Under the pieces are notes generated by a model that made no database searches, had not been told where the DNA came from, and was given only the letters and a program-made list of their open reading frames with translations. A stretch of 63,522 nt of DNA, the filler included, from Planctomycetota bacterium (GTDB taxonomy: Bacteria; Planctomycetota; Planctomycetia; JALXBF01), in the NCBI GenBank assembly GCA_026991575.1. It is 4 parts of 4 records of this genome, joined end to end, with 100 filler letters (N's around TTAATTAATTAA, not from the genome) between each part and the next. Parts side by side here need not be neighbours in the genome. Positions count along the whole stretch, not along the records: positions 32,135 to 47,873 come from JALXBF010000120.1; 3 more parts are not named here. One strand, given 5' to 3'. Positions 6,117 to 47,973 of this stretch are shown piece by piece. Each line of letters starts with the position of its first letter. Position 1 is the first letter of the stretch. The translations under genes were made by a program, and so were the position numbers.

Positions 6117-6144
6117 CTCCGTGTTCTCTGTGTCTCCGTGGTGC
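6117..6144. repeat. Short CTCYGTG periodic intergenic repeat, copy 1
   Basis: CTCCGTGTTCTCTGTGTCTCCGTGGTGC; near-identical copy at 8262-8284. Confidence 0.7.
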
Positions 6145-6311
6145 AGCTCTATCGAAAAGGACTGCTCGGCTCGAAGAACCGCAGACAAGTCAAGTCGCGT
6201 CCCGTGTTCGTAATCGCTTGCCGCGCGCGTGCGACGTTTGGTACACTGGCGACAGTCGTAAAGTGTGACTCTGCGTAGGGGAGAATCAACACCACACACC
6301 TGGAGGTTGTC

Positions 6312-7427: not shown

Positions 7428-7830
7428 CTGTGGATTGCATCCTTCAACCGCCCCTCCGACGCGAACGCCTCCGCTCGGGTTCGCGTCGCCTGCGCGCGGG
7501 CGAGTGTCTCACCCGCGTTGGCGGGTTGGCTTCGACTGCGTTGGGAGTTAGTCACGCCAGCGTCGGCGGACCGTTCAACTCGCCAGCTACGAGAACTCGC
7601 GGGAGGGGGGCTTCACGCCCCCCGCCCGCCTATCGAAGCAAGCTGGCGGGTCCGTGCGGCAATCCCCCTCGCCAGGGTCTCGGGTGAGAGGCGTCCCGTG
7701 CTCCCTCTCGCAGATGGATTCGCAACCCCCGCGCGGGCGGGTGGACGGAGCCGGGGCGCCGACCACACGACGGTCTCTCGGCATCTCGCCGCCGTGCGCT
7801 CCCGCAGCGTGAGGCTGCCACCCCATCCGC
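7428..7830. repeat. Dispersed ~400-bp repeat, copy 2 (single central hairpin 7599-7629)
   Basis: Direct-orientation homologue of 965-1621 lacking the insert. Confidence 0.9.
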
Positions 7831-8261
7831 TTGGCACACACCGTGCCGCGAGCCCCTCCGGGTCGCAACCGACCTCTTCACGACCGCTTGCGTCGTAATG
7901 GCCAATCGAACCGGAGTGGGATTGAACGGCAGCGGGCAGGCTAACCTTCTTCCGTGGCGGATGTCGCAACGCGCAGCGGAGCTGGGAAAGAATTCACGCT
8001 GGCGGGAGAAGATTGGGATCGGAATGACACAGATAGGCTACGGAGCTCCGTGGCGCCGGCTGGGGCACTGTCTTGGCGCCGCCCGTCAGTCACAGTTGGG
8101 GCTCACGCAGGCGCGGTCGATCTGCCGAGTGTGCGCTTCGGGGACTGAATTGGCGAAGCCGACGGGCTGATCCACCCCCCCTGTCGACGACTCGATCCCC
8201 GCCTCATTAGCCCACGCGCGCAGAGCCCCAGTCCAAGAAGAGAGGAAGGAACTCAGCGTGT

Positions 8262-8284
8262 TGTTCTCTGTGTCTCTGTGGTGC
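8262..8284. repeat. Short CTCYGTG periodic repeat, copy 2
   Basis: TGTTCTCTGTGTCTCTGTGGTGC, one mismatch to 6122-6144. Confidence 0.7.
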
Positions 8285-8378
8285 GGTTCTGTCCGGGGCG
8301 AGCGGACACATGTTGGCCTCGTCCGGGAGCGGAACCGCCCCCCCCTGCCTACGCCGGACAGCAAGACGGTTGTCTGGC

Positions 8379-9752
8379 CTACTCCTTAACCCGATCGATT
8401 TCGACCCTCACCGGGCGCGGATTATTGATGCGGTAGATTTCGTCCTCGATGCTCGCAGCTCGCTCTTCCAGCGCGCGGATCTGCTGCTCGAAATCAGCCA
8501 ACCGGCGTTTCAAGCTCTCTTCTTGCCGTTTCAGCGCTGTGTCGTCCGGATTCTGCTTCAGTGCGGCTCGCACCAGTCGAAGCCGCTTCCGCGCCGACCA
8601 GAGATTGCGTAACGGACGCACCGCTTCTTCGTTCCGCCGCTTGTTCAACTGGGCCACCTGGGCCGCCTGCTGTCTCAGCGGCCATGCATCGCGGTCCTGC
8701 AGTTCAATGCCGACGGCAAGCTGCTCCGCACGAAACCGACCCACCGGCTGCCCGTTGGCGCGCAACTCGTACAGTCCTGGAGGCAGACCGCGAACACGCA
8801 ACGTTTCCCGGGAGAACCGATGCCCTAGCTGCACCAGCCGTGCGCCCGGCAACGCCTCTTCCGGCAGTACCCACGGCAACGCTAACGCATTCAGCGTGAA
8901 CCGAATTCTGTCATTACGACCGATCACGTCGCTCACAATACAGTGCTCCATGCGAACAACAACCGCGTTTCTCTGTGTCACTAACAGCTCCGCCTTCCAG
9001 ACCTGATCTGGCAGACCGAGGTCACGCACCATCGCAGCCGCCATGATTGCCTGTCCCGCCGGCCCCGGGTGGACAGCGTCCGGAATCACCGTGAACTTCG
9101 GGTCGCGCTTCCTCTGAGAAAACGTCAACTGATTCAGCCAGCTGTACATGTCCACGTATCCCAGCCCCTCCCGGTATGCCACCTCGCGGAGCCAGGCCCC
9201 GTAGTACGCCAGCACTCCGTTGTAGTACTCCGCTCGATCGGCCGGTGTGTTCGGATTCCGCATATACGCGGCTCGGGAATCGAACATCGTCGGGTGCATT
9301 AGAATCGGCGTTGCTCCGCAGTCCTTGATCTGTCGCAGCAGTTCCAGCATGTCGTCGTGGTACCGCTGGAACAAACCGGCGTCAAATGGCCGGTAACCAC
9401 CGTCGTTCATGCCCAGGAGAATCGACACATACTTCGGCTTGTAGTGCGCCACGTCTCGCTCGAAACGGATCAACGCGTCGGCTGCTCGATCGCCGCCAAC
9501 GCCTGCGTTGTGGAATCGGACCCGGACGTCGGGATAACGGGTGAAGAAATAGTCTTCGAAATACTGTGTGTACAGACACTGGTGTGTGATACTGTCGCCT
9601 AGGAAGACGAACGTGTCGCCGTCGTTCAACTCGATCGACGCGAGTGGTCGGGCGAACTCAGCCGCTTCCTTCTCCTGAGCAGCGACGACCGACAGAAGCG
9701 TGCCCAAGCAGATGGCGAAAACCAGTCCAGCTATGCATCGCTGTCTGTGCAT
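8379..9752 (-). CDS. Secreted SGNH/GDSL hydrolase
   Basis: 'FLGDSIT', 'NAGVGG', 'GMND', 'DAVHP'; signal peptide; GAGGAGG RBS before ATG 9752. Confidence 0.9.
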   Translation of the reverse strand: MHRQRCIAGLVFAICLGTLLSVVAAQEKEAAEFARPLASIELNDGDTFVFLGDSITHQCLYTQYFEDYFFTRYPDVRVRFHNAGVGGDRAADALIRFERDVAHYKPKYVSILLGMNDGGYRPFDAGLFQRYHDDMLELLRQIKDCGATPILMHPTMFDSRAAYMRNPNTPADRAEYYNGVLAYYGAWLREVAYREGLGYVDMYSWLNQLTFSQRKRDPKFTVIPDAVHPGPAGQAIMAAAMVRDLGLPDQVWKAELLVTQRNAVVVRMEHCIVSDVIGRNDRIRFTLNALALPWVLPEEALPGARLVQLGHRFSRETLRVRGLPPGLYELRANGQPVGRFRAEQLAVGIELQDRDAWPLRQQAAQVAQLNKRRNEEAVRPLRNLWSARKRLRLVRAALKQNPDDTALKRQEESLKRRLADFEQQIRALEERAASIEDEIYRINNPRPVRVEIDRVKE

Positions 9753-10746
9753 CCCGACCTCCTCGAAAGACCAACCGGGGAAGTCATCCCCGCCTCTGTA
9801 CGCAGAAGGTCCCAAAGCATTCGTAATGACACGTCGAGTACGACCGCGGCCCGTTGGGCCAAACCTGTGCCCGTCCGCGCTTGGGAACGGATCGCGCGCC
9901 TCGGATGCGGTGCTATTGTAATGGAAAAGCTCCAGTCTGCTCCCCCGCCACACACGCCCCCCGACCAGCACCGCCAACGCAGCTCGGACGATCTGTTGCT
10001 CGTTGGCGTGCCGCCCAAGACCATTGCGTCCAAATCGATGGTTGGTTGTCGGGTGATGCAGCAGCGTCGCTTCAGAAGCAGCGAGCACACTGTTCCCACG
10101 GACTGGGGCTTGATGGAGGCAACCAGTCCCAGACGACTTGTCCCCACGGATCCACGAGATCCGGGCCAAGAGGGTACTTTCCGCGGAACCCATCAGGGAC
10201 GCGAGAGCCGATCTCGTGACACCGCAGGCGCGCACACAACGAGATGCTAATGAGTCAGCCCAGAGGCAGGATACTTCCGCAGGGTGTTGTTCCTGTAGCC
10301 CTTGAACAGGGCCAGACCGATGACCAAAGGCATTTCCTTCAAGCCTGGTAGCGTCGGCCCACGCATCTCAGCGCGTGCCACCTCCGTGTAGCACGCTCAT
10401 GCCACGACAGCGAGCACCGTACCGAGTCTACCGAACGTGCTGTGCCAGCGCTGACGTCGTGATTCACCGCGGAAGTGTTCAGCTTTGCGGATCCGGCTCT
10501 CGCATCCATCTGCCGTCTGGCTTATCGGTCGGTGCTGGTCAGGCCCCTGCGGAATGTGGCACCGGCCGGATCAGAACGATTGGACAGCCGAGCCCCGGAC
10601 ATTGACCGCAACGATTCAGCGCGCAGGAGCACGTGAGTGTGTATACTGCCAGGTTCGCGGGTGACGTTGTAGAACCCAACGAAGTAAGGAGCCCGGGCGT
10701 CAGAAATGTCGGATCTCCGCGCGACGCCGGACAGCCAGGAGCAACG

Positions 10747-12975
10747 ATGCGCCGTTTGTTCAGACTGTGCCCACCGCTAGTTGCGTGCACCTATGCGGTC
10801 CTCTCGAGCACCACTTGGCTATCCGCCGATGAGCCGGATCGGTCGCCGCTGGCCGCACTCGGCTTTGTAGACGTCACCGCTCCCCCGTTTTCGGCGGACC
10901 CTACCGGGCGGAAGGATTCGACGGAAGCAATCCAGCGAGCGATCGTGTACGCGCGTGACCACCAGATGGTCTGTTTCTTCCCGCCCGGAGAATACCTTGT
11001 CTCGGACACTCTTGAATGCCGCCAGTACCGGCCCCTGACTGCGGGCGGAACACGGCGCAAGGGCACGCGCGAATACCCTTGTGTGCTGGTCGGCTCCCGG
11101 CGTGGTCCTCGGCCGCGGATCGTCCTGGCACCGAATTCGCCCGGTTTCTCAGACCCTTCGAAGCCGAAGTATGTGATCCACTTCTGGGCGCCAGGAACCG
11201 GCCGCGAGGTCCCGCTCGACCAACCTCAACCCAACATCAATATGAACCAGATGCTGATCGGCATCGACATTGTCATCGGCCCGGGGAATCCAGGTGCGGT
11301 CGGCGTTCGCCACCGCTGCGCGCAGGGCTCGGGTGTGCAGGACTGCACGATTGATGCCCGGCACGGCTACTGTGGTCTGGAAGGCGGTGCGGGGTCCGGC
11401 GGGAGCCATGTGAACGTCACGGTCATCGGCGGCCGGATCGGGATGGACCTGCGCGAGACCCAGCCTGCTCCGACCCTCGTCGGCTGCACGCTGATTGGCC
11501 AGACGGAGGTGCCGCTGATCTCGGCCAGTCGCCAGACGTTGTGCGCCGTTGGCCTGCGCATCGAAACCGACACCAGTGGACCGGCGATCGTGACCAGAAA
11601 GGGCTGGGGAGCCCACACGGGACAGCTGTGCCTGGTCGACAGCGTGATCGTCTTCCGTAAACCGGGGCCAAACGTCGCCATCGACGCCGAGGCCAGCCTG
11701 TACTTGAACAATGTCTACGTCCGTGGTGCCCGAACGCTCGTCCATCAGCCCGGCCGCAGCCCTCTGCGAGCGTTTGATGCAGGCTGGAACCGGATCGCAG
11801 AGTACGCAGGCGGCGTGCCACAACGGTACCGGGATCGCAAACGGAACCTCGTGTTCCGCTACCCCGCCCCGATCTACGTTGACGGCGAACGACTGGACGT
11901 GCCCTACCTGGCCGCGGTTACCGATAGCGGACCACCACCGCGCGACCTGCAAACGCGGCATGTCTGGGATGAGGCACTCCCAAGCTGGGAATCGCCTGCC
12001 GCGGTGAATGTCAAGGATCCCCCCTACGGTGCCGTCGGGGACGGGAAAGCGGACGACACGGACGCAATCCAGAAGGCAATCGATGAGCGTGAAATCGTGT
12101 TCTTGCCGAAGGGAACGTATGCCGTCAGCAAGACGCTGCGGCTGCGTTCGAACACGAAGCTTATCGGAGTCCATCGCTGCTTTACGTGGCTTGTGCCGAT
12201 CAGCCGTCCGGGAGAGGACTTCACCGATCCCGAGAATCCGAAACCGGTTATCCAGACCGCCGACGATCCCAGAGCCCGGACCGTCCTGGCCTTCTTCGGC
12301 ATTCGAACGATGCAGCGATCGACGGCCGCTTACTGCCTGCTCTGGCGCAGCGGACGAGATTCCCTCATCCGGGACGCCGACATGGTGTACGCGTACGGAC
12401 CGTGGCGAGTCCCTGAGCATCGGCCGGTCAAACCGTATAATCATCCGCTGGTCATCGTGGAAGGTCATGGCGGCGGCCGGTGGTACAACTTCTTCCAGGA
12501 GAGCTGGCGGTGGCACGGACCGGCGTACCGACACCTGCTCATCCGGGGCACGACCGAACCGCTGCGGATTTACCAGTGCAACCCGGAGCATGCGCGATCG
12601 GACGCGAACATGGAGATCCGCGGTGCCCGCAACGTGTCCATCTACGGCGTCAAAGGGGAATACAACCGGCCGATCATCTGGGTCCGGGACAGTGACCACA
12701 TTCGAATCTTCGGTTACGGCGGCAACGCTGCCGCCCGCGCGGGCACGGCACTGTTTGTGATCGAACGTACCCCCAGGTTCCTGCTGGCCAACCTGGTCGA
12801 CACGCCCCGCATGCCCCGAGGTATTTCGGACACGTTCTTTGCAGGAGACGGCGTCGATCCGCGTCGCTGGCACATGGTCCTGGAGCGCACGCTGACCGGC
12901 GACACGATCCGCACGGCGCCGCTGGAGCGTCCCGTGCTGTACAAGCGTGGCTATGGACCGAAGGGCGACTACTAG
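10747..12975 (+). CDS. Secreted beta-helix carbohydrate-active enzyme (two Pectate_lyase_3-like modules)
   Basis: 'DVTAPPFSADPTGRKDSTEAIQRAI..FFPPGEYLVS' and 'NVKDPPYGAVGDGKADDTDAIQKAI..FLPKGTY'. Confidence 0.8.
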   Translation: MRRLFRLCPPLVACTYAVLSSTTWLSADEPDRSPLAALGFVDVTAPPFSADPTGRKDSTEAIQRAIVYARDHQMVCFFPPGEYLVSDTLECRQYRPLTAGGTRRKGTREYPCVLVGSRRGPRPRIVLAPNSPGFSDPSKPKYVIHFWAPGTGREVPLDQPQPNINMNQMLIGIDIVIGPGNPGAVGVRHRCAQGSGVQDCTIDARHGYCGLEGGAGSGGSHVNVTVIGGRIGMDLRETQPAPTLVGCTLIGQTEVPLISASRQTLCAVGLRIETDTSGPAIVTRKGWGAHTGQLCLVDSVIVFRKPGPNVAIDAEASLYLNNVYVRGARTLVHQPGRSPLRAFDAGWNRIAEYAGGVPQRYRDRKRNLVFRYPAPIYVDGERLDVPYLAAVTDSGPPPRDLQTRHVWDEALPSWESPAAVNVKDPPYGAVGDGKADDTDAIQKAIDEREIVFLPKGTYAVSKTLRLRSNTKLIGVHRCFTWLVPISRPGEDFTDPENPKPVIQTADDPRARTVLAFFGIRTMQRSTAAYCLLWRSGRDSLIRDADMVYAYGPWRVPEHRPVKPYNHPLVIVEGHGGGRWYNFFQESWRWHGPAYRHLLIRGTTEPLRIYQCNPEHARSDANMEIRGARNVSIYGVKGEYNRPIIWVRDSDHIRIFGYGGNAAARAGTALFVIERTPRFLLANLVDTPRMPRGISDTFFAGDGVDPRRWHMVLERTLTGDTIRTAPLERPVLYKRGYGPKGDY

Positions 12976-16097: not shown

Positions 16098-16197
16098 NNN
16101 NNNNNNNNNNNNNNNNNNNNNNNNNNNNNNNNNNNNNNNNNTTAATTAATTAANNNNNNNNNNNNNNNNNNNNNNNNNNNNNNNNNNNNNNNNNNNN
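16098..16197. other. Artificial contig linker
   Basis: N-run, TTAATTAATTAA (stops in all frames), N-run. Confidence 0.98.
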
Positions 16198-32034: not shown

Positions 32035-32134
32035 NNNNNNNNNNNNNNNNNNNNNNNNNNNNNNNNNNNNNNNNNNNNTTAATTAATTAANNNNNNNNNN
32101 NNNNNNNNNNNNNNNNNNNNNNNNNNNNNNNNNN
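32035..32134. other. Artificial contig linker
   Basis: N-TTAATTAATTAA-N. Confidence 0.98.
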
Positions 32135-32312
32135 GCCGACATCGCCGCCACGGTGTGCCGCTTGCTGGGATACGCCCCGGCCACCTCCGTGACCTTGCCC
32201 CAGGGCCGCTTTATACCATTGGCTGAAGGGCAACCGATCGCCGAGCTGGTTGATATGCCGACCCGTGCTCGGGTCTGATCACGCTCAGTCCCCCTTGCAG
32301 TGCAGGACCACG

Positions 32313-33626
32313 ATGAGCACAGTTCTGCCCATTCAGCGTCTGTTGCAGGAACCGGAACAGCCAGAGGTGTCGGACCCGGAGGCTGCAGTTCTGGCCGAGC
32401 TAGAACGCGTTGGCCTGGCGCAGCGGCTGCGGCCCGGGGCATCGGTAGCCGTGGCTGTGGGCAGCCGTGGCATCGCCAACCTGGTTCCCATCGTCCAGGC
32501 CGTGATCAAAGCGGTCCGGCAAGCAGGCGGCCAGCCCTTTGTCGTCGCAGCAATGGGTAGCCACGGTGGAGCAACTCCGGAAGGTCAGCGAGCCCTGCTT
32601 GCTGAACTGGGAATCACGGAGCAAGCCGTTGGCGTCCCCATCAAGACCGACATGGACGCCCGCCGAATCGGCACCAACGAATTCGGACTTCCTGTCTACT
32701 GGGACTGCAACGCCCTGGCGGCCGACGCGGTGATTACCGTCTCGCGGATCAAACCGCACACGGATTTCCGGGGTCGGTTCGAGAGCGGCATCGTGAAGAT
32801 GTTAGTCGTCGGGCTCGGCAAGCGGCTCGGCGCGGAATCGATCCACCGCTACGGTGCCCGCGGGCTGAGGACCATGCTCGAGGCGTCGGCCCGTGTGGTT
32901 CTGGAAAAGACCCCGTTCCTGCTCGGCGTGGCTATCGTCGAGAACTTCTACGACCAAACCGCATTGATCCGCGCCGTGCCCCGCGAGGAATTGCTGGCGG
33001 AGGAGCCGAAGCTGCTGGAACAAGCCCGGCAGCTCATGGCAACGCTGCCGTTCGACGAGCTGGATGTGCTGGTCATCGGAGAGCTGGGCAAGAACTACTC
33101 CGGCTGCGGCATCGACCCGAACGTGATCGGCCGGATGTATATTGCCGGCGAGCCGGAGTTTGATCGGCCGCGCATCGCTCGAATCGTCGTCCTGGACCTG
33201 GCCCCGGAAAGTCACGGCAACGGCACTGGCGTGGGGCTGGCTGATTTCATCACCGAACGACTACGTCGAGCAATCGACCGGCGGCCAACTGAGGTTAACG
33301 CGATGGTATCAACTTTTGTGGAGCGCGCGCGTGTGCCGCTAGCCTTCGAGAATGATCGGGCTGCGATCGAGGCTGCGCTGCAGACGTGCTGGCAGCCGGA
33401 CCGGTCCAAAGTCCGGCTAGCCATCATTCCCAACACGCTACAGCTCCGCGAACTCTGGGCCACCCCCGCCGCCTGCCAGCAACCCCTGCCACCGTACGTT
33501 CGGATCGAGCCGGACTGCCGCCCGATTCCCTTTGATGACAACGGCAATCTTCGCCAGGAGGAACTGTTCCCCCACTCATGGCGATCCTATCGGGCCAAAG
33601 GCATCCTGCTGACGGCAGCGCACTGA
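32313..33626 (+). CDS. LarA-like N-terminal domain (DUF2088) protein
   Basis: 'GSRGI', 'AMGSHGGAT', 'RIKPHTDF', 'ESG..KM..GLGK'. Confidence 0.8.
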   Translation: MSTVLPIQRLLQEPEQPEVSDPEAAVLAELERVGLAQRLRPGASVAVAVGSRGIANLVPIVQAVIKAVRQAGGQPFVVAAMGSHGGATPEGQRALLAELGITEQAVGVPIKTDMDARRIGTNEFGLPVYWDCNALAADAVITVSRIKPHTDFRGRFESGIVKMLVVGLGKRLGAESIHRYGARGLRTMLEASARVVLEKTPFLLGVAIVENFYDQTALIRAVPREELLAEEPKLLEQARQLMATLPFDELDVLVIGELGKNYSGCGIDPNVIGRMYIAGEPEFDRPRIARIVVLDLAPESHGNGTGVGLADFITERLRRAIDRRPTEVNAMVSTFVERARVPLAFENDRAAIEAALQTCWQPDRSKVRLAIIPNTLQLRELWATPAACQQPLPPYVRIEPDCRPIPFDDNGNLRQEELFPHSWRSYRAKGILLTAAH

Positions 33627-35835: not shown

Positions 35836-37110
35836 GTGCAGAGCAGGCAGTTCAGAGAAGCAGGCCACGAACCGGACGAGGAGCAGCTGCAGCGCCGCCT
35901 GGCGTACTTCCGGCTTGGTCCAGCGGAACTGGCCCGGCTGAAGGAGGTTGGCCAACAGTTCGAAGACTACCTGGCCGGATTCGTGGATTTCTTTTATACC
36001 CACCTTCAGAGCTTCCCGGAAACGGGCCGTTTTCTCCGCGACCCGCAGCTTGTCGATCGCCTCAAGCAGGCTCAGCAGCAGTACTTCCGGTCGTTGTTCG
36101 AGGGCAAGCTGGACAACGCCGTGGTCGAGTACCGGTACCTGATCGGCAGGAAGCATGCTGAGGTGGGGTTGGCACCGCAGTGGTTCCTGGGCGCGTACGC
36201 GCTGTATCTGGAGTTCTGCGTCGGCCAGCTGGCACGATCGGGGCTGCCGAAGGAGAAAGCCGATCTACTGGTCGCGCTGGTAAAGTTCATCCTTTTTGAC
36301 GTTAGCCTCACACTGGAGGCGTACTTCCGCCGCGCGACGGAGCACATCCGGCTTGCACTGCAGATGCTACAGGAGTCGAATGCGGAGCTGAAGGACTTTG
36401 CCCGCCTGGTCAGCCATGACCTGCGCACGCCGATCGCTACGGTGATGGGCCTGTGTGAAGAGTTCATCGACGAGTACGGTGACCAGATACCGGCTGGAGC
36501 GCGCGAGTTGGTTGAGGAGGCACGTGCTCAGACGCGCCGCATCGCCCACCTGCTACATGAGCTGACAAACATCTCTCAGGCAAGCGGGGACCTTGCCGCC
36601 CGCGAGTTGGTCTCACCCCGGGCACTGCTCGATGAGGTGATCGACCGGCTTCGGCCGGAGATCGAAGCCAAGGGGGTTCGGATCCAGATCCAGGATAAGC
36701 TGCCCCGCGTCTGCGTCCACCCGGGTCGTTTTCGCGAGATCTTTTACCAACTGCTGTCTAACGCGGTGAAATTCTCCGAGGGCGAAGCGCCGGTTGTGAG
36801 GGTGTATGCTGAAGAGGGTCAAGGGGCACACACGTTTTTCGTTGCCGATCAAGGGCCGGGCATTCCCGAGGACGTGCTCGACCTCGTTTTCCTGCCGTTC
36901 TGGCGCATGCCGAAGCACCGCGACGTACCGGGCACGGGCCTGGGGTTGTACTTCGTGAAGACGATGGTCGAGGAGCAGGGCGGGCGGATCGAGCTGCGTC
37001 CGCTACCGGAAGGCGGCACGCTCGCGGCAGTGACTCTGCCTGCCGCGCGCTCCCCACACCCTCCCCCCCTCTGGCCTCAGTCAGACACGGAGCGCACCGA
37101 TGCAAGTTAA
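35836..37110 (+). CDS. Globin-coupled (protoglobin) sensor histidine kinase
   Basis: 'FYTHL', proximal His 'IGRKHAEVGL'; H-box 'SHDLRTP', 'NAVKF', 'DQGPGI', 'GTGLGL'. Confidence 0.9.
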   Translation: MQSRQFREAGHEPDEEQLQRRLAYFRLGPAELARLKEVGQQFEDYLAGFVDFFYTHLQSFPETGRFLRDPQLVDRLKQAQQQYFRSLFEGKLDNAVVEYRYLIGRKHAEVGLAPQWFLGAYALYLEFCVGQLARSGLPKEKADLLVALVKFILFDVSLTLEAYFRRATEHIRLALQMLQESNAELKDFARLVSHDLRTPIATVMGLCEEFIDEYGDQIPAGARELVEEARAQTRRIAHLLHELTNISQASGDLAARELVSPRALLDEVIDRLRPEIEAKGVRIQIQDKLPRVCVHPGRFREIFYQLLSNAVKFSEGEAPVVRVYAEEGQGAHTFFVADQGPGIPEDVLDLVFLPFWRMPKHRDVPGTGLGLYFVKTMVEEQGGRIELRPLPEGGTLAAVTLPAARSPHPPPLWPQSDTERTDAS

Positions 37111-38572
37111 CCCAGCTGTAACCGCGCTGGTTGCAACCTTTTACTGCTTCCTGCTAAGCACTCCACCGGCTGTGCGTGGCGCAGAACGGCCGAACATCGT
37201 CCTGATCCTCGCCGACGATCTGGGCTATGGCGATCCGGGCTGCTACAACCCGGACTCCAAGATTCCAACGCCCAACATAGATCGGCTGGCGGCCGAAGGC
37301 ATCCGTTTCACCGACGCACACACGCCGTCGGCCGTGTGCACACCGACCCGCTACGGCCTGCTGACCGGCCGCTACTGCTGGCGTACCCGGCTGAAACGCG
37401 GCGTGCTCATTGGCTCATCCCGAGCCCTGATCGAGCCAGACCGATCAACCATCGCCGCCCTGCTGCAGAAGTACGGCTATCGCACAGCAGCAATCGGCAA
37501 ATGGCACCTCGGCTTCCAGGATCCCGAGCAGGGGAGGCAGGTGGACTACGATCTGCCCTTGCGCCCAGGTCCGGTCACTCAGGGCTTCGACTATTTCTTC
37601 GGGATCCCGGCCTCGCTGGACATGGAGCCGTACGTGTTCGTGCGGAACGACACACCGGTTGAGCCGTTACTGGGCCGGATCGCCGCCAGCAAGATGCGGC
37701 GACGCGGTGGTGGCGGCTTCTGGCGCGCAGGCCGCATCAGCCCCAGCTTCCGACATGAAGATTGCCTGCCACGACTGACGCGCGAAGCGTTGTGGTTCAT
37801 CCAGGACCACCAGGCGAACTACCCCGACAGGCCGTTCTTTCTGTACTTCGCCTTGACCGCGCCCCACACCCCGTGGATGCCGATCGAACCATTCCGCGGT
37901 GCCACGCCGGTGGGCTATTACGGGGATTTCGTCGCCCAGGTCGACTGGGTGGTGGGCCTGATCACGGCGGAGCTGGACCGGTTGGGAATTGCCCACAACA
38001 CGCTGGTCATCTTTACTAGCGACAACGGCGCCCACTGGCTGCCGAGCGACATCCAGCGGTACGGTCACCGGGCCAACGGACCGCTCCGCGGACAGAAGGC
38101 CGACATCCACGAAGGCGGCCACCGCGTACCGTTCATCGTGCGCTGGCCCGCTCGCGCCCGGGCAGGTGCCGTCACTGGCCGGCTCGTCTGCCTCACCGAC
38201 GTCTATGCAACGCTGGCCGAACTGGTCGGCCATGAGCTCGCAGAGAACGAGGCGGAAGACAGCTACAGCTTTCTCGACGAGCTTCTCGGCAGCAAGCCCC
38301 AGCAGCCCGTTCGCAGCGCCATCGTGCACCATTCAGGCTCGGGCATGTTTGCCATCCGCAAAGGGCCCTGGAAGCTGATCCTTGGCCTCGGCTCGGGCGG
38401 ATTCACACCACCACGTCGCCTGGAACCGACGCCCGGCGGCCCGAAAGGCCAACTATACAACCTGGCCGAAGACCCCGCCGAAACCAGGAACCTGTGGCTT
38501 GAAAAGCCGGATGTCGTCAGCGAGCTAACCCAGCTGCTCGAGCGGTACCGCGCCTCAGGCCGGAGCCGTTAG
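37100..38572 (+). CDS. Arylsulfatase (Cys-type formylglycine sulfatase)
   Basis: 'PNIVLILADDLG', 'CTPTRYGLLTGR', 'GKWHLG'. Confidence 0.95.
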   Translation: MQVNPAVTALVATFYCFLLSTPPAVRGAERPNIVLILADDLGYGDPGCYNPDSKIPTPNIDRLAAEGIRFTDAHTPSAVCTPTRYGLLTGRYCWRTRLKRGVLIGSSRALIEPDRSTIAALLQKYGYRTAAIGKWHLGFQDPEQGRQVDYDLPLRPGPVTQGFDYFFGIPASLDMEPYVFVRNDTPVEPLLGRIAASKMRRRGGGGFWRAGRISPSFRHEDCLPRLTREALWFIQDHQANYPDRPFFLYFALTAPHTPWMPIEPFRGATPVGYYGDFVAQVDWVVGLITAELDRLGIAHNTLVIFTSDNGAHWLPSDIQRYGHRANGPLRGQKADIHEGGHRVPFIVRWPARARAGAVTGRLVCLTDVYATLAELVGHELAENEAEDSYSFLDELLGSKPQQPVRSAIVHHSGSGMFAIRKGPWKLILGLGSGGFTPPRRLEPTPGGPKGQLYNLAEDPAETRNLWLEKPDVVSELTQLLERYRASGRSR

Positions 38573-38588
38573 CACACAGACCGCCACG

Positions 38589-39806
38589 ATGGCCCGAACA
38601 CTGCTCCTCGCCCTCGGAACCGCCGAACCAGCCTTGCCGCACGAGCGGCAAGTAGCCAGACTCCTCCAACAGCTCCGCAACGTGCTGGGCCCGTGGTCAG
38701 AGCAGGATCGTGTCGGAGTCATCGTTGCCGGTGACTCGCTGCGGAGCCACACGCTGGCACCCGCCGCCGTCGCTCCCCCCCTGTCCCCCTTCGGCCGCGA
38801 GCTCGCTCTCTGGCGCGTTCCACCGGCTCTGCCCTTGGAACAGACCGCGCAGCTCATCGATACGTTGGCCCGTTGGCTCGGAAATTCCCCCGGCGAACCG
38901 ACCTGCTACGTACTGACGCATGCGGCCCCGCATTGCGTCGTGTTGCTCGTGCTCACAGCGGCAATCTGTGGCGCACCGCTTGCAACCGTCGATCCCGACG
39001 CCGGCACGCTGGTCCAACGCATCGAGCTGCCGCCGCTCGTGCCCGATCCACAGTTGTGGATCGACTGGTTGAGCGAACCCGCCGGGCCCAAAGGAGCCAA
39101 CGACGCCGCCTTAAGCAGCGACCCGCTTGGCGCCTCCCTCTATCGCAAGCTTCGCTTCATCTGGCCCGACGCCAGTGAGATCCCCTGCCCGTGGGGCAGC
39201 CACGGGCCCGAGTCGCACGGAACCGTTGCGCCGGAGCCGCGAACCACGACTCCGAACAAGCCCCAACCCGTCAGCCGGCCGTCCGACACACTGCTCGGCG
39301 AACGGTTCCGTCGGCTCCTGGCACGATGCTATCGCGATCGGGTTACCGGACTGGCCAACCGAGCCTTTTATGAGGACGTGTTCGCAACGCACGTTGCCCG
39401 TCGGTGGTCGCATCAGGCTGCAGGCCTTATCCTACTGGACATTAACAACCTCAAGGACATCAACGACACGATCGGCTACGCGGCGGGTGATCGCGTGCTG
39501 AGTGTCGTGGGAGCCGAGCTGACCCGTGCCGTCACCGCCTGGAACTGTGGCGAAGCCTACGCGATTCGCTGGGGGGGTGACGAGTTCCTGGTAGGCTTCT
39601 CGGACGAACGGCTGACAGAGGCCACCGTCTGCTGGCGCCGTGACCAGTTGCACGTCCAACTCTCTGGAGCGCTTCGCGGTCTGCCCGGCGCGCCGTCGGT
39701 CACGGTTGTCGCTGCGTTTACCCCCCCTGGAGGTCCGAGCCTGATCGCGTGTTTCGACCGGCTGGACCAGGAACTGCGCGCGGCCAAACGCCGCTCGAAA
39801 GGCTGA
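38589..39806 (+). CDS. GGDEF diguanylate cyclase with N-terminal CARF-like Rossmann domain
   Basis: 'DRVTGLANR', 'LDINNLKDINDTIGYAAGD', 'RWGGDEF'. The N-terminal domain call is tentative. Confidence 0.8.
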   Translation: MARTLLLALGTAEPALPHERQVARLLQQLRNVLGPWSEQDRVGVIVAGDSLRSHTLAPAAVAPPLSPFGRELALWRVPPALPLEQTAQLIDTLARWLGNSPGEPTCYVLTHAAPHCVVLLVLTAAICGAPLATVDPDAGTLVQRIELPPLVPDPQLWIDWLSEPAGPKGANDAALSSDPLGASLYRKLRFIWPDASEIPCPWGSHGPESHGTVAPEPRTTTPNKPQPVSRPSDTLLGERFRRLLARCYRDRVTGLANRAFYEDVFATHVARRWSHQAAGLILLDINNLKDINDTIGYAAGDRVLSVVGAELTRAVTAWNCGEAYAIRWGGDEFLVGFSDERLTEATVCWRRDQLHVQLSGALRGLPGAPSVTVVAAFTPPGGPSLIACFDRLDQELRAAKRRSKG

Positions 39807-40299
39807 CCGCACCATGCCGGCCATCGGCAAGCGCCACGCCGCAATGTGGCCAACCCCAGCACGACGGCATCCCCAGTACTGCTCGCGCAAGCACAGGCAA
39901 CCACGCTGAAGCAACCGGCCGTGATCGAACGGATCGAGCGACAGCTTACCGTGCCCGTCCATGATCAACTGCAACAAGCTCCGCGAAGACCGGCGCTCCG
40001 CTCTTACCCGATCAGGCTACCGCTGCTGGAGAAGGCGGTGGTACCCCCCCTGCTCACTGTCGCACCAAACGGCAGACCGCCTTCTCCTGGTCTTTCTCCC
40101 CGGGGCATTCCAGCACACCGCCTGGGTGGTCACAACCATCCGGTGCGGGGCCCGTTGGGCAGGCCGACAGAGAAGGTGGACGGTCGGGGTTTTGGTTGGG
40201 GCGAGATCCGAATTGCGCGGCCGGCAGCGTTCCTGTGCCTGCGTCCAAGCTCGCGTTAGAATCGCGCGATGGAGCTACCGACACAGCGGAGAACGCACC

Positions 40300-41676
40300 A
40301 TGAGACGGCTTACCGCCTGCATAGGCCTCCTTGTCGCTTTCGTGCCTTTCTACTCGGGTGCATCCGCGCAAGCGTGTGACCGCCCCAGCCTCAAGGTCGG
40401 CGCAGCTGCTGTGAACCTGCCTGCCGACGACTCGATGGTCATCGCCGGCGGCATTCTGCCGCGGTATGCAAGAGGCCAGGAAGGCGAGTTGCGAGCGGTG
40501 GCGGTGGTCATCGAGCGGCCCGGGGACACAACGCTGGCCATCGTCGCCTGCGACGTGCTGTTTGTCACCCGCGACTTCGTCGACCCGGCGGTGGCCGAGA
40601 TTCAGCAACGTACCGGGATTCCCGCCGAGAACATCCTCGTCAACGCCACGCACACGCACCACGCCCCCAGCACAACCGTTGTGCACGGATACGGCCGTGA
40701 GGAGGCGTTCGTGGCTCGCCTGAAGGACGCGATCGTCGAGGCGGTTGTCCGCGCGCACGAGCGGCGTGCGCCGGCTTGTTTCTACTTTCATCTGGGAGAA
40801 GAACGCACGGTTGGAGCAAACAGTCGACGCCGTCTGCCAGACGGACTGATCTACTGGATTGGCCCAAACCCGATGCGGTACCCGCCCACCGGGCCGTTCG
40901 ACCCGGAACTTCCGGTGCTGGCCTTCAAAGCACCCGACGGAAGCTACCGTGCCGTGATCTACAACCATTCCACGCACACGATCGGCACCATCCGCGGCAA
41001 CGTGCGTTCGCCCAGCTTCTACGGGCTCGCCGCCCAGGAACTCGAAAAAGAACTGGGCACGACCGTCTGCTTCCTGGAGGGAGCGTCCGGTTCGACCCAC
41101 AACATCACGGGCGTGCCCGTGGCAGAGGCGGTGCGACGGTTCAAGGCCGCGGTGCGCCGCTCACTGCAACAGGCCGAACATCGTAACGTGCACCGGCTGG
41201 CCGCCGCGAAGGAACCGTTCCGCTTCACCGTGCGGCGATTCAATGAGCAGGAAGAGGACCGCAAGGTCGTGCGCTACTGCAACAAGTACGCGGGCAAACA
41301 GGCAAAGGCATATATCGAAGTCTTCCGCGCCATGCGCCGCAAGCTCGCCCCCCTGCAAGGACAACCACGCGAAACATGGTTGCAGGTGATGGTCATCGAC
41401 GACGTAGGCATCGCCGGCGTACCTGCCGAATACTTCACCATGCTGGGTATCCAGATCAAACGGAGGTCGCCACTTCGCAACACCGTTGTCGCAGAACTGG
41501 CCAACGATTGGATCGGTTACCTGCCCGATCGTCAGGCCCACCGGCTTGGTGGATACCAGACCTGGATGGGCCTGCACTCCTATGCGGAAATCGGCACCGG
41601 AGAACGCGTCGCCGACCGAATCGTGGCGATGTTCCAGGAGTTGGTCAGCAACCCGCCTGCCGGTACCCGGCCGTGA
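40300..41676 (+). CDS. Secreted neutral/alkaline ceramidase-like metallohydrolase
   Basis: 'NATHTHHAP', 'PAEYF', 'ELANDWIGYLP..GGYQ'. Confidence 0.8.
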   Translation: MRRLTACIGLLVAFVPFYSGASAQACDRPSLKVGAAAVNLPADDSMVIAGGILPRYARGQEGELRAVAVVIERPGDTTLAIVACDVLFVTRDFVDPAVAEIQQRTGIPAENILVNATHTHHAPSTTVVHGYGREEAFVARLKDAIVEAVVRAHERRAPACFYFHLGEERTVGANSRRRLPDGLIYWIGPNPMRYPPTGPFDPELPVLAFKAPDGSYRAVIYNHSTHTIGTIRGNVRSPSFYGLAAQELEKELGTTVCFLEGASGSTHNITGVPVAEAVRRFKAAVRRSLQQAEHRNVHRLAAAKEPFRFTVRRFNEQEEDRKVVRYCNKYAGKQAKAYIEVFRAMRRKLAPLQGQPRETWLQVMVIDDVGIAGVPAEYFTMLGIQIKRRSPLRNTVVAELANDWIGYLPDRQAHRLGGYQTWMGLHSYAEIGTGERVADRIVAMFQELVSNPPAGTRP

Positions 41677-41737: not shown

Positions 41738-44700
41738 ATGAGCGAACCGCAACGGCCGTTTTACCGCCTCATGGTGGGAACGCTCCTGCCGTGGCTGCTT
41801 CTTGCAGGGTCAGCCTGCGCCGAGCAACCCAAACGGCAGCCGCTCCGGGCTGGTGCATCAGCCGTCGACATCACTCCGCAGCAATTCCCCGTGATTGTCA
41901 ACGGGTCGTTCCTGGAGAAGAAAGCGACCAAAGCCTATGACCGGCTCAAAGCTCGTGCACTGGTATTGGATGACGGCGTCAGTAGAGTTGCACTGGTCGT
42001 TGTCGACAGCCTGATGCTGCCACGCGCGTTACTTGACGAGGTTAAGCAGGAGGCTCAGCGACGTACCGGCATTCCCAGCAGCCGAATCCTGATCGCTGCC
42101 ACGCACACTCACTCGGCCCCTTCCGCCATGGCCTGTCTGGGCAGTCGGCGTGATGATGCCTACGTGGCGTTCTTGAAGCCGCGTCTGGTGCAAGCCATTG
42201 AGCGAGCTGCCGCTCGGTTGACCGAGGCAGAGATCGGCTGGACCGTTGTGCCTGCCACGACGTTGAACCACTGCCGCCGGTGGATCTTCCGGCCCGATCG
42301 CGTCGGGCGCGACCCGTTTGGCAACCCGACCGTTCGGGCGAACATGCACCCCGGTTACCAGAGTCCCAATCACATCGGCCCCGCCGGCCCGGCGGATCGA
42401 GAACTGACCGTCGTAGCCGTGCGCAGACCGGGCGGGACGTTGATGGCAGTGCTGGCAAATTTCGCCTTCCACTACTACGGCACTGCGCCTGTCTCCGGCG
42501 ACGTGGCCGGTCGTTTCGGGCCGACCCTTGCCCGGCTGCTGGGCATCGACCGGTCGGAAGCGTTTGTCGGCATGCTCAGCCAGGGAACTTCCGGCGACAG
42601 CATGTGGATGGACTACAGCCGGCCGGCGCCGAAGCGAGACATGGACGCTTACGTGGGGCAATTGGCTCGGCTGGCGGCCAGCGCATTGGATCGTCTCTCG
42701 TACCGGCGTCGCGTACCGCTGGCGATGGCCGAGGCCGAGCTCACGCTGCGGCGACGCGTGCCGGATGAGAAGCGCCTGGCGTGGGCACGTCAGATTGTGG
42801 CCCGCATGGGGGACCGGTTGCCACGCAACCTGCAGGAGGTCTACGCCAGGGAGGCCATCTACCTGGCACGCGACCCGGTCGCCCGCCTGAAGCTACAGGC
42901 CATCCGCATCGGCGAGCTGGGCATTGTGGCAATGCCTAACGAGGTCTACGGCATCACCGGGATGAAGATCAAGCTGGCGAGCCCGCTGCCGACGACTTTC
43001 GTCATCGAGCTGGCCAACGGAGCGGAGGGCTACATCCCACCGCCCGAACAGCATGTCCTTGGCGGTTACACGACCTGGCCGGCTCGCACGGCCGGGCTCG
43101 AGGTTACCGCCGAACCGAAGATCGTCCAGACCGTGCTCGGCCTGCTGGAAAAGGTGGCCGGTGAGAAGAGGCGACCGATCAGAGATCCGGTGCACCGTTA
43201 CGCGCAGGCGGTGCGTCGATTGAAGCCGGCAGGCTGGTGGCGTCTGGGCGAGATTTCGGGCACAACGGCACATGACGCGGCCGGCCGTCATGACGGCCGC
43301 TACGAGCCGGGTGTTGTCTTCTACCTGCCCGGGCCGCACGGTGAAGGCTTCGCAGGGGGACGGTTCGGCAACCGGGCCGCTCAGTTCGCCGGCGGCCGGG
43401 TCCGGGTGAGGTTGGGGCAGGTGCCTGAGCAATACAGCATTGCGTTCTGGTTCTGGAACGGCCTGCCTGACCGCACACGCGCGGTCACAGCCTATCTCGT
43501 TTCGCTGGGCAGAGAGGGAGACCGCCAGGCTGAGGGGGACCATGTTGGCCTAGGCGGTACTGCCGAGCCGGGAATGGCAGGTAAGCTGTTCTTCTTCAAC
43601 GGGAACCGGGACCACACGCTAATCGTGGGCAAGACCACCGTGCCGCTGCGACGGTGGACTCACGTCGTCTTCGTCCGAGACGGACGTAGGGTCAGGCTGT
43701 ACGTGGACGGGAGGCTGGATGCCGAGGGTGAAGCCCCGGTGACGCGGCCGGTCAAAGAGGTGGAGCTATTCCTGGGAGGTCGCTGTGACCGCTTCGCGCC
43801 GCTTGAGGGCCGGCTCGATGAGGTTGCGTTCTTCAACCGGGTGCTATCGGACGATGAGGTGGCGGCGTTATTCGAAGCCTCTGGTCTGCGTCCGCTTGCC
43901 GAAGCTGCCGCGGCCGGCCCAACCCATCCCGAGTCGCCTCCTCTGGCCCCGTCAGAAGCATTGCGCGCGATCCACGTGCGGCCGGGTTATCGAGTCGAAC
44001 TGGTCGCCGCCGAACCGCTGGTACAGGACCCGGTAGCCATCGCCTGGGGCAACGACGGCAAACTGTGGGTCGCCGAGATGGCCGACTACCCCCTGGGAAT
44101 CGACGGCAAGGGCAAGCCGGGCGGTCGCATCCGGTTCCTGGAAGACACCGATGGCGACGGCCGCTATGACCGGTCCGTGGTCTTCCTGGAGAGTTTACCT
44201 TTTCCGAATGGTGTCATGCCCTGGCGCGGCGGCGTTCTCATCACCTCCGCGCCGAACATCCTCTACGCGGAGGACACGGACGGCGATGGCCGGGCAGACC
44301 GGACGGAGATCCTGTTCAGCGGGTTCCATGAGGGCAACCAGCAGCTCCGGGTCAACGGTCTGCGGTGGGGCCTGGACAACTGGGTGCACTGCGCGAACGG
44401 TCGGCATCGAGCGGGCTATCGAGGCGCGGACCAGGTCGTTTCGGTCAAGACCGGCCGGCAACTGCTCCTGGGCAGCCGCGATTTCCGTTTTCAGCCGGAC
44501 ACGGGCCGGCTGGATCCGGAGTCGGGTCCCAGCCAGTTTGGCCGCACGCGCGACGATTGGGGCAACTGGTTCGGCTGCATGAACAGCTGGCCGATGTGGC
44601 ACTACGTGCTGCCGGACCGTTACCTGCGGCGGAACCCCCACTTCGTGCCTCCCGATCCACGTCACCAGCTGTTCACTCCCATGAACCCAAGGGTCTACCC

Positions 44701-46774
44701 GGCGAAAGAACCGCAGAAGCGCTACCACAGCTTCACCCAATCGGGCCGGTTCACTTCGGCATGTTCTCCGCTGCTGTACCGTGACGAGCTGCTGTTTGAC
44801 CGCAACGACCTGGAGCGGACCGTGTTCGACGGAGCGGTCTACCACGTGTTCGCCTGCGAACCGTTTCACAACCTCGTGCAGCACCGCATCGCGGAGGCCG
44901 ATGGGATCAGCTTCCGCGCGCGGCGTGATCCGGCCGATGGCCCGGTCGACTTCTTCGCCGCGCGCGACCGCTGGTGCCGCCCGGTGATGGTGCGCACCGG
45001 TCCAGACGGCGCGCTGTGGGTTGTGGACATGTACCGCTACATGATCGAACATCCGGAGTTCCTCCCCCCGGCGGGCCGGCAGGAGCTGCAGCCGGTATAC
45101 CGCGCCGGGTCGGATCGCGGCCGTATCTATCGCATCCTCCCGGAAGGGAAGCAGGCTCGGCATGTCCCTCCGATCCATCGACTCAACAGCCGAGCGGTCG
45201 TTGACCTGCTCGGCCATCCAAACGGTACGGTGCGTGACATGGCGCACATGGAGCTAATCTGGCGGGGAGCAACCGAGGTGGCCGGCAAGTTGGCCGAATT
45301 CGTACGGAAGCACCCGTCACCGCTGGCTCGGCTCCATGCGCTGTGTGTGCTGGAAGGGTTGAAGAAGCTGGACGATGAGGTGCTGCTGGCTGCGTTGGCC
45401 GATCGACATCCGGGAGTGCGGCGGCAGGCGGTGCGGCTGGCCGAGTCGTGGCCCGAAGATAGCCGCGTTGCGCAGTCGGTGGCCGAGTTGATCGATGACC
45501 CGGACGCTCGGGTTCGGCTGCAGGTGGCATTCTCATTGGGGACGTGGCACAGTGAGTGGGCGGCGAAAGCGCTGGCCGCGCTCGCGGAGCGGGCCGCGAG
45601 CGAGAACCGCTGGTTTGCTGCGGCAGTTCTGAGCTCGCTGCATGGAGACAACGTTGGCCCGGTCCTTGAGATCGCCGCTCGCCAGGGGGGCTATTTCGCT
45701 GAAGGCGCTGTTTCGACCGCCGTAGGGATGAAGCAGTACGAGTTGGTCTCGAAGGTTCTTCGCAAGGTCCTGGACGAGGGATCAGGCACCTTACTCAACA
45801 AGTTCTCGCTCGTGACGACCGTGCTGGAAGCTGCCCGTCGCGCGGGATGGGACGTGTGGCAGGATGACCAGCTCGCGCGGCAGATTTCCCGGTTGACCGC
45901 GGTCGCCGGCCGCGTGGCAGCGGACCGGCGCGCGGAGGTGCCGCTGCGCGTGGCTGCTATCGGACTGCTGGCGCGGCGTGAAGCGGCGCTGGGAGGGGAG
46001 CTAGAGTTGCTGGCCGGTTTGCTTGGTCCACAGCATCCGCCGGACGTGCAGAACGCGGCTCTCAGGCGGCTCGGTGAGATCGATGCAGAGCGCGTCGCAG
46101 AGCTGTTATTGGATGGTTGGTCCGGGTACAGCGTGTCGCTGCGGCGGGCGGTGATCCAGACGTTAAGCAGTCGGCAGACGTGGAGAGCCGCGCTGTTACG
46201 GGCACTGGAACAGGGAAAAGTGGCGCCTGGTGAAATTGACGCCGCAGCGCGCCAGGCGTTGCTGCACAGTGCGTCGGGCAAGCAGCGTGACCGCCTGGCG
46301 CGGGTGTTTGCCCGAAGCCGCGCGCCGCGTGCTGATGTCGTCGCGCGGTTCCGTTCCGCGTTGGAACTGGAAGGCGACGTTACGCGGGGAATTCAGGTCT
46401 TTGAGCGGGCTTGTGCGGCGTGCCACCGGGTTCGCGGGGTTGGTAACGAAGTGGGCCCGAACCTGGCCTCGTTGACCGACAGGCGGCCGCTGTCGCTGCT
46501 GACCGCCATCCTGGATCCGAACGCATCCGTCGACGGGCGGTACGTAAGTTATGTGGTGTTGCTGCGTGATGGCCGTGTGTTGACGGGGATGATCGCGCGC
46601 GAGACGGCCGGGGCGATCGTGTTGGTTGACCAGGATGGTCAGGAGCGGGCGGTGCCACGGGCGGAGATCGAAGCATTGCGAGGCACGGGGAAGTCGCTGA
46701 TGCCGGAAGGTCTCGAGGAGCAGCTCAGTGCTCAGGACATCGCGGACCTCATCGCCCTGCTCCGCTCACTTTAG
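41738..46774 (+). CDS. PVC-type CxxCH multidomain protein: ceramidase-like, LamG, dehydrogenase-like beta-propeller, HEAT repeats, cytochrome c
   Basis: 'ATHTHSAP'; 'WTHVVFVRDG..GRLDEVAFFNRVLS'; 'ELVAAEPLVQDPV'; 'CAACH..GPNL'; 'SLMPEGLE'. Confidence 0.9.
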   Translation: MSEPQRPFYRLMVGTLLPWLLLAGSACAEQPKRQPLRAGASAVDITPQQFPVIVNGSFLEKKATKAYDRLKARALVLDDGVSRVALVVVDSLMLPRALLDEVKQEAQRRTGIPSSRILIAATHTHSAPSAMACLGSRRDDAYVAFLKPRLVQAIERAAARLTEAEIGWTVVPATTLNHCRRWIFRPDRVGRDPFGNPTVRANMHPGYQSPNHIGPAGPADRELTVVAVRRPGGTLMAVLANFAFHYYGTAPVSGDVAGRFGPTLARLLGIDRSEAFVGMLSQGTSGDSMWMDYSRPAPKRDMDAYVGQLARLAASALDRLSYRRRVPLAMAEAELTLRRRVPDEKRLAWARQIVARMGDRLPRNLQEVYAREAIYLARDPVARLKLQAIRIGELGIVAMPNEVYGITGMKIKLASPLPTTFVIELANGAEGYIPPPEQHVLGGYTTWPARTAGLEVTAEPKIVQTVLGLLEKVAGEKRRPIRDPVHRYAQAVRRLKPAGWWRLGEISGTTAHDAAGRHDGRYEPGVVFYLPGPHGEGFAGGRFGNRAAQFAGGRVRVRLGQVPEQYSIAFWFWNGLPDRTRAVTAYLVSLGREGDRQAEGDHVGLGGTAEPGMAGKLFFFNGNRDHTLIVGKTTVPLRRWTHVVFVRDGRRVRLYVDGRLDAEGEAPVTRPVKEVELFLGGRCDRFAPLEGRLDEVAFFNRVLSDDEVAALFEASGLRPLAEAAAAGPTHPESPPLAPSEALRAIHVRPGYRVELVAAEPLVQDPVAIAWGNDGKLWVAEMADYPLGIDGKGKPGGRIRFLEDTDGDGRYDRSVVFLESLPFPNGVMPWRGGVLITSAPNILYAEDTDGDGRADRTEILFSGFHEGNQQLRVNGLRWGLDNWVHCANGRHRAGYRGADQVVSVKTGRQLLLGSRDFRFQPDTGRLDPESGPSQFGRTRDDWGNWFGCMNSWPMWHYVLPDRYLRRNPHFVPPDPRHQLFTPMNPRVYPAKEPQKRYHSFTQSGRFTSACSPLLYRDELLFDRNDLERTVFDGAVYHVFACEPFHNLVQHRIAEADGISFRARRDPADGPVDFFAARDRWCRPVMVRTGPDGALWVVDMYRYMIEHPEFLPPAGRQELQPVYRAGSDRGRIYRILPEGKQARHVPPIHRLNSRAVVDLLGHPNGTVRDMAHMELIWRGATEVAGKLAEFVRKHPSPLARLHALCVLEGLKKLDDEVLLAALADRHPGVRRQAVRLAESWPEDSRVAQSVAELIDDPDARVRLQVAFSLGTWHSEWAAKALAALAERAASENRWFAAAVLSSLHGDNVGPVLEIAARQGGYFAEGAVSTAVGMKQYELVSKVLRKVLDEGSGTLLNKFSLVTTVLEAARRAGWDVWQDDQLARQISRLTAVAGRVAADRRAEVPLRVAAIGLLARREAALGGELELLAGLLGPQHPPDVQNAALRRLGEIDAERVAELLLDGWSGYSVSLRRAVIQTLSSRQTWRAALLRALEQGKVAPGEIDAAARQALLHSASGKQRDRLARVFARSRAPRADVVARFRSALELEGDVTRGIQVFERACAACHRVRGVGNEVGPNLASLTDRRPLSLLTAILDPNASVDGRYVSYVVLLRDGRVLTGMIARETAGAIVLVDQDGQERAVPRAEIEALRGTGKSLMPEGLEEQLSAQDIADLIALLRSL

Positions 46775-47873: not shown

Positions 47874-47973
47874 NNNNNNNNNNNNNNNNNNNNNNNNNNN
47901 NNNNNNNNNNNNNNNNNTTAATTAATTAANNNNNNNNNNNNNNNNNNNNNNNNNNNNNNNNNNNNNNNNNNNN
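47874..47973. other. Artificial contig linker
   Basis: N-TTAATTAATTAA-N. Confidence 0.98.

Follow-up and report, generated by a model that had tools for sequence, protein, structure and literature searches.

Synthesis of cyclic diguanylate (c-di-GMP) requires two GGDEF domains to meet, and sensor-linked diguanylate cyclases carry an N-terminal input module ahead of this catalytic domain: PleD and WspR are REC-GGDEF proteins, in which the module is a receiver (REC) domain, and DosC is a globin-GGDEF protein. The window analyzed here, a stretch of 63,522 nucleotides from a Planctomycetota bacterium (GCA_026991575.1), holds at 38589–39806 on the plus strand a gene whose 405-residue product is built in the same manner, with a C-terminal GGDEF domain that has all catalytic motifs, an N-terminal module in the input position, and an activity that is expected to arise by GGDEF pairing. 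It differs from the three known enzymes in that the input module matches no known sensor family, a Pro/Ser-rich tether of ~55 residues takes the place of a rigid helix, and there is no RxxD I-site. We compared the protein in detail with known cyclases and, since the original prediction had read it as a CARF-like domain fused to a GGDEF cyclase, with the CARF effectors of type III CRISPR systems. The reading that we favor, with a probability of roughly 0.6, is that of a signal-regulated diguanylate cyclase with a new, lineage-specific N-terminal input domain. The GGDEF half of the original prediction stands, whereas for its CARF half the formal tests were negative or powerless and the leads in its favor lie below threshold.

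The ORF listing and the translation give one open reading frame (ORF) of 405 codons plus stop with an ATG start, which is divided as follows in window coordinates.

38589–39806, plus strand: the whole gene, consisting of the orphan N-terminal domain, the linker and the GGDEF domain (ORF list, translation, codon-position GC).
38589–39098, plus strand: N-terminal domain of alpha/beta type, residues 1–~170, lineage-restricted (no family match; one ortholog; DSSP order).
38892–39092, plus strand: its best-conserved core, residues 102–168, with T..H..P..V..L...A..CG.P..T, then R.EL, then D..LW...W (Smith-Waterman comparison with the ortholog, alignments).
38934–38990, plus strand: a very hydrophobic stretch, residues 116–134, CVVLLVLTAAICGAPLATV (Kyte-Doolittle).
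39114–39284, plus strand: a linker rich in Pro, Ser and Thr, residues ~176–232 (composition, alignment gaps).
39330–39797, plus strand: the GGDEF (diguanylate cyclase) domain, residues 248–403 (PF00990, TIGR00254, PDB matches).
39438–39491, plus strand: the substrate and metal motifs DINNLKDIND (residues 284–293) and GYAAGD (296–301), aligned to D.D.FK..ND..GH.AGD of 3ign and 3qyy.
39567–39587, plus strand: the active-site motif RWGGDEF, residues 327–333, of which GGDEF itself occupies 329–333 at 39573–39587 (translation, PDB alignment, motif positions).

Residues 248–403 belong to Pfam family PF00990 (E 1.8e-21; 77 bits, cut-off 23.8) and reach 68.5 bits against a cut-off of 37.4 with TIGR00254, the generic GGDEF model of NCBIfam. 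The diguanylate cyclases 3ign, 3qyy, 7e6g and 4zve of the PDB align at E 1e-9 to 6e-9, and the alignment to these solved cyclases keeps DRVTGLANR, D284-x4-K289-x2-N292-D293, G296-x4-D301 and R327-W-GGDEF. The GGDEF signature and the upstream Asp and Asn residues (D284, N292 and D293) are hence intact, as had been predicted. Work on PleD and WspR assigned metal- and guanine-binding roles to these motif residues. D301 is the canonical guanine-specific residue, and c-di-GMP is therefore the expected product. An RxxD I-site is absent from the 14 residues before GGDEF both here and in the ortholog described below, so that product feedback would be missing. The protein is apparently a diguanylate cyclase that is soluble and able to catalyze its reaction. 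In the whole genome, GGDEF matched three times and PilZ once, the latter marginally. The closest GGDEF relatives bear PAS, GAF, REC or membrane modules at their N-termini, all unrelated to the orphan domain, and a CARF domain occurs in 0/12 of them; such ordinary sensor modules are the normal pattern for this enzyme family.

The N-terminal region in front of this cyclase is real, coding, and conserved with one ortholog of the same architecture, as judged from the following comparisons. Its GC content at the three codon positions (0.749/0.52/0.749) follows a pattern like that of the GGDEF part (0.694/0.512/0.719) and of the neighboring genes, which indicates that it is coding; the linker also resembles the neighboring genes in this respect. 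The ortholog (P0002/P0003, 417–449 aa) is in G001, the one further genome from this family, and is again a GGDEF fusion; the architecture is kept in two genera. The linker plus GGDEF part of P0002 is 39% identical to ours and is the best match among the genomes of 21 relatives. BLASTP did not align the N-termini of the two orthologs. MAFFT placed them collinearly with ~60 invariant positions, among them H, P, CG.P, R.EL and LW..W, and the shared landmarks run from LG..P at the start through V..I and LG...T....H..P..V..L...A..CG.P..T to R.EL and D..LW...W. The local Smith-Waterman score of the N-terminus against G001 was 57, which was reached by 5/1000 shuffles, and the score observed for the C-terminal half of the N-terminal domain was reached by 0/1000. 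The G001 protein differs in having an N-terminal domain that is ~40 residues longer and less hydrophobic. The linker is poorly conserved and 21 residues longer than that of the ortholog, and residues 176–245 consist of 16% P and 11% S.

Apart from this one ortholog, the domain is an orphan. At E ≤ 10, Pfam, NCBIfam and PADLOC had no match for residues 1–200, nor did the PDB yield any at this threshold when searched with a profile of the N-terminal alignment. The N-terminal domain matched itself only, both in an exhaustive phmmer search of 1.84 billion representative proteins and in a word-indexed search of 5.8 billion clusters, and no further relative appeared in two metagenome scans and one genome-contig scan with our own alignment. 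A two-sequence profile found it in 2 of 401 genomes of the class, both of one bacterial family; an extra match in G078 (E 6.4e-4) was dismissed as chance, being located in a TadE-like ORF. The N-terminus of the G001 ortholog was equally orphan in its own search. A signal peptide considered at residues 1–17 was rejected because no membrane segment lies between it and the GGDEF domain, whose substrate GTP is cytoplasmic; nor does the N-terminus of the ortholog look like a signal.

AlphaFold modeled this protein with a mean predicted local distance difference test (pLDDT) score of 41.6 and the ortholog with 36.3, at which only the order of secondary structure is readable. DSSP assigned to both low-confidence models strands that alternate with helices and end in two adjacent strands. 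Such an order would suit a Rossmann-like domain, and hence also CARF, without being specific. A two-copy dimer prediction for residues 1–175 scored 0.27 and 0.18, where the mark is 0.42, and speaks neither for nor against a dimer. The very low confidence across the region in both orthologs, its richness in Pro, Ala and Leu, and the lack of relatives outside one bacterial family would also suit an N-terminal part of 230 residues that evolves fast, is largely unstructured and senses nothing, leaving the cyclase constitutive or controlled by its expression. We consider this very unlikely, as the two orthologs are collinear to a degree above that of shuffles and share invariant H, P, C, G and W, both models alternate regularly between strand and helix, and the same architecture persists in the two genera.

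The hydrophobic stretch brings in another explanation, in which residues ~113–135 form a membrane helix and the cyclase is anchored with a small extracytoplasmic N-terminal part. The Kyte-Doolittle 19-residue mean of residues 116–134 is 2.38, several of the closest GGDEF relatives cross the membrane more than once, and sensor-GGDEF proteins with a membrane anchor are widespread. The corresponding segment of the ortholog is however marginal (1.63), and the stretch holds the conserved H and P and the CG.P break. A signal peptide, a second helix and a K/R cluster at its flanks are all lacking, and AlphaFold 2 splits the stretch into a helix (114–126) and a strand (131–135). An anchored cyclase is thus quite improbable, and residues 116–134 are read here as a buried helix and strand.

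In the favored reading of a signal-regulated cyclase, the input domain of ~170 residues would adopt an alpha/beta, Rossmann-like fold and most likely sets the activity of the cyclase, to which it is tethered via the flexible Pro/Ser-rich linker and a short helix. Given that catalysis needs a pair of GGDEF domains, and that the tether is both long and flexible, the domain probably controls dimerization or oligomerization when it binds a small ligand or a partner protein, as other sensor-linked cyclases do, and does not act by rigid allostery. The most probable class of ligand would be of nucleotide type, bound in a Rossmann-like pocket that follows strands 1 and 4.

A rival reading comes from the gene neighborhood. 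Since the window is made of four contigs (C117, 1–16097; C119, 16198–32034; C120, 32135–47873; C123, 47974–63522) joined by N spacers (16098–16197, 32035–32134 and 47874–47973), the true neighborhood of the gene is C120 only. Upstream on the plus strand lie a protoglobin histidine kinase (35836–37110; Protoglobin, HisKA and HATPase_c) and then a sulfatase (37100–38572), which overlap by 11 nt, and the sulfatase stop is separated from the GGDEF gene by 16 nt. The kinase looks orphan because C120 contains no receiver-domain gene: 0/26 receiver-domain matches of the genome fall on this contig, and the kinase has no neighboring response regulator. The three genes are co-oriented and REC-GGDEF is a classic architecture, so the N-terminal domain could be a degenerate receiver-like or partner-binding module fed by the kinase two genes upstream, making the cyclase a gas- or redox-sensing output. 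When the two-sequence N-terminal profile was compared by hhalign with 24 REC domains from the same genome, the probability was 1.1% and the score was reached by 7/100 column shuffles, which is as good as the result for CARF given below. The response-regulator model PF00072, which is usually very sensitive, gave no match at E ≤ 10, and there is no shared acceptor Asp, the sole invariant acidic residues being E146 and D153. Moreover, the sulfatase between the kinase and cyclase genes is of secreted type and bears a signal peptide, and the ortholog in G001 adjoins a creatininase and a zinc-ribbon gene, with no kinase. We hence regard a link to the kinase as unlikely.

Other parts of the neighborhood were recorded as follows. 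Downstream of the GGDEF gene, ~490 bp (39807–40299) precede the next likely start and enclose an ORF of 137 aa (39846–40259) with neither a Pfam match nor an Rfam family. A distinct ceramidase-like gene whose product has a signal peptide (40300–41676) then precedes a gene for a 1678-aa DUF7133/cytochrome c protein (41738–46774). The latter protein has a ceramidase-like N-terminus and a cytochrome c at its C-terminus, and also carries Laminin_G_3, DUF7133 and HEAT repeats. A LarA-N/DUF362-like protein is encoded at 32250–33626 of the same contig, and on the minus strand of C119 (29847–31996) a radical SAM protein of 507 aa adjoins a 4Fe-4S dicluster protein. An Rfam search of C120 gave no match, and a promoter and terminator scan gave a number of sites that was not above that of shuffles.

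CARF effectors, namely Csm6/Csx1, Can1/Can2/Card1, the Crn1 proteins Sis0811 and SSO1393, Csa3 and RtcR, resemble our protein in pairing an N-terminal alpha/beta domain of similar size with a C-terminal effector, and in having a motif after the presumed strand 4 that is equally spaced from the next strand. There is also a weak resemblance at the level of features and 3Di states, and the genome encodes Cas10 cyclases. On the other hand, our protein has no significant sequence or profile match to them, lacks their signature, and is not located in a cas neighborhood. The original prediction relied on the strings MARTLLLALGT (residues 1–11), DRVGVIVAGD (40–49), LIDTLARWL (89–97), CYVLTHAAPH (106–115), LTAAICGAPLATVD (122–135) and IELPPL (145–150), all of which are present in the ORF, and likened their order to the APE2256/Crn1 type. 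This likeness did not hold as a family match, since PF09651 (Cas_APE2256) was absent from the protein at E ≤ 10 and from the entire genome at E ≤ 1; no Crn1/APE2256 seed sequences were found in five archaeal genomes. The CARF models of Pfam, NCBIfam and PADLOC likewise matched neither this protein nor its ortholog at E ≤ 10.

The proposed degeneration of the TGGxK motif was borne out, as [DN]X[ST]XXX[RK] occurs nowhere in the first 200 residues of this protein or the first 215 of the ortholog. The motif aligned at strand 4 is VLTHAAP here and CIAHMTP in the ortholog. According to PMC4012209, which names three defining features of CARF domains, this CARF signature places a basic residue just after strand 4, and the RtcR and RV2818 families of CARF domains are also mostly without K/R. 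The N-terminal domain could be a divergent CARF domain in which the strand-4 motif has changed from TGGxK to [TA]H..P, and which binds a cyclic oligoadenylate (cOA) made by Cas10, or another Cas10-derived nucleotide, and thereby switches the cyclase. T11 in LLLALGTAEP fits the polar S/T that ends strand 1, a strand taken from the low-confidence models, but the residue is not kept in the ortholog, which has P in LMFGPPAGG.

CARF alignments were built from 80 Card1-type, 3 RtcR-like CARF-sigma54 and 2 Csx1 sequences. Against these, hhalign gave the two-sequence N-terminal profile probabilities of 0.4% (Card1), 0.64% (RtcR-like) and 0.88% (Csx1), with scores reached by 21/100 column shuffles for Card1 and 3/100 for RtcR-like. 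As a positive control, the RtcR-like and Card1 alignments, which are two true CARF families, recognized each other at 96.4% (E 1.4e-9, 104 columns). In a second control, the CARF domain of the genome's own Csx1, taken at the same two-sequence depth, reached no more than 0.73% and 0.1% with the other CARF alignments. The weight of the negative profile result is thus limited, because a true divergent CARF was missed equally. Pairwise Smith-Waterman comparisons with the 80 Card1, 3 RtcR-like, 2 Csx1 and 24 REC sequences gave mean z values of −0.11 to 1.29 and did not discriminate; against Card1, the two orphan N-termini had means of 0.02 (this protein) and 0.44, and Csx1 had 0.46. The RtcR-like sequences are ~500-aa CARF-sigma54-AAA+-HTH regulators from three other genomes of the phylum (L035, L036 and L037), which match Cas_Csm6_CARF and carry SGTPQM, not TGGxK, after strand 4.

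Three leads favor the divergent CARF domain. An ESM-Atlas feature search with residues 1–200 returned a Card1 CARF as the top match at 0.84, below the 0.9 line of the tool, with 173 shared features. Among the best 10 family-bearing Atlas matches, 8 share a family or clan with the Card1 CARF, the families listed including Csm6_CARF, Csa3_N, HFX_2341_N, NE0113 and RtcR, and the neighbors are almost all CARF clusters. Residues 84–123, the best hhalign segment, are in register with helix 3 and strand 4 of the RtcR-like CARFs and with their "SGTPQM" motif. Foldseek placed the Crn1-type ring nucleases Sis0811 and SSO1393 at ranks 1–5 (E 0.018–0.09), with Csa3 and Cami1 further down at ranks 24 and 45. 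The AlphaFold and Foldseek comparison that had been suggested as a check thus put Crn1-type CARFs first, but it did so from a poor model, with top rows that are below threshold (TM ~0.2, root-mean-square deviation ~16 Å), and the ortholog did not reproduce it. None of the three leads was reproduced by the ortholog: it gave no usable Atlas match, and its Foldseek list was headed by unrelated Rossmann-like proteins, with cA4-bound Cam1, at rank 38, as the highest CARF. That three methods point to one rare superfamily carries some weight, although all three remain weak leads below significance.

The genomic setting was examined for the same question. The genome has three GGDD-intact Cas10-type genes (891, 549 and 552 aa), none of them near the GGDEF cyclase gene, and three Cas1 genes. 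The type III-like loci are at C183:~4100–11400 (Cmr2/Cmr3/RAMP), C32:~5000–11400 and C27:~69500–75400, the latter two with a shorter Cas10 palm and RAMP. A Csx1 is encoded on another contig of the assembly, as had been stated, at C27:45308–46915 on the minus strand (535 aa; Csx1_HEPN above cut-off), and does not adjoin cas genes. This Csx1 carries a DVSSGLN motif and the HEPN motif RNVIAH; its surroundings (C27:37518–46915) include a TPR-CHAT protein of 1322 aa at a distance of ~4 kb as well as FG-GAP, VIT-VWA and MerR genes. At E ≤ 1e-5 the genome yielded neither a Card1-type nor a Csm6-type CARF, leaving Csx1 as the only recognizable cOA receptor; with three Cas10 cyclases and one such receptor, unrecognized receptors may therefore exist. 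G001 has four Cas10-palm matches and a Csx1. Across the class, the Cas10 palm occurs in 27/121 genomes and Csx1 above cut-off in 2/201, both of which are the carriers of the orphan domain; a Csx1 match in G109 was rejected as a Ser/Thr kinase.

This co-occurrence with type III genes counts as a single event, because the two carriers are kin. The 15.7-kb contig C120 holds no cas or defense genes, and none is near the G001 gene, whose neighbors (see above) differ from those found here. The search for the same architecture thus yielded one ortholog and no cas neighbors at either gene. A CARF-diguanylate cyclase fusion was not found in print, in a search that left the tables and supplements of the 2020 CARF classification outside its range. 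In the CARF literature found, "GGDEF" refers to the palm domain of Cas10 or mCpol, or to unrelated work, and the term occurs 0 times in PMC4012209; one of the papers names CARF in its references and nowhere else. Together, these observations leave a CARF-like N-terminal fold as a tentative possibility, more doubtful than not, and make gating of the cyclase by cOA improbable; the complete scheme, from a Cas10-made nucleotide to a switched cyclase, is similarly unlikely.

A new lineage-specific input domain on a signal-regulated cyclase remains our preferred reading, and several points weigh against it. The fold of the N-terminal domain, its binding and its control of the cyclase are only predicted from sequence, and the AlphaFold confidence is low for both orthologs. 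Residues 116–134 are hydrophobic enough to be called a membrane helix. The Atlas, hhalign and Foldseek leads point specifically to CARF and not to a generic fold, and type III CRISPR signaling genes are unusually abundant in the two genomes that carry the domain.

If the N-terminal domain were a CARF sensor, an antiviral alarm would be converted into a c-di-GMP lifestyle signal, such as attachment, matrix or dormancy, in place of growth arrest mediated by a nuclease. This would be a direct wire from CRISPR signaling to c-di-GMP with a non-nuclease, non-lethal output, and of interest to the two fields alike, a claim that the present evidence does not justify. As it stands, the protein is probably one more diguanylate cyclase with an uncharacterized input domain, which is a common situation of modest interest. 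Its input domain is nevertheless a clean example of a family-restricted domain that is not assignable by sequence, profile or current structure prediction.

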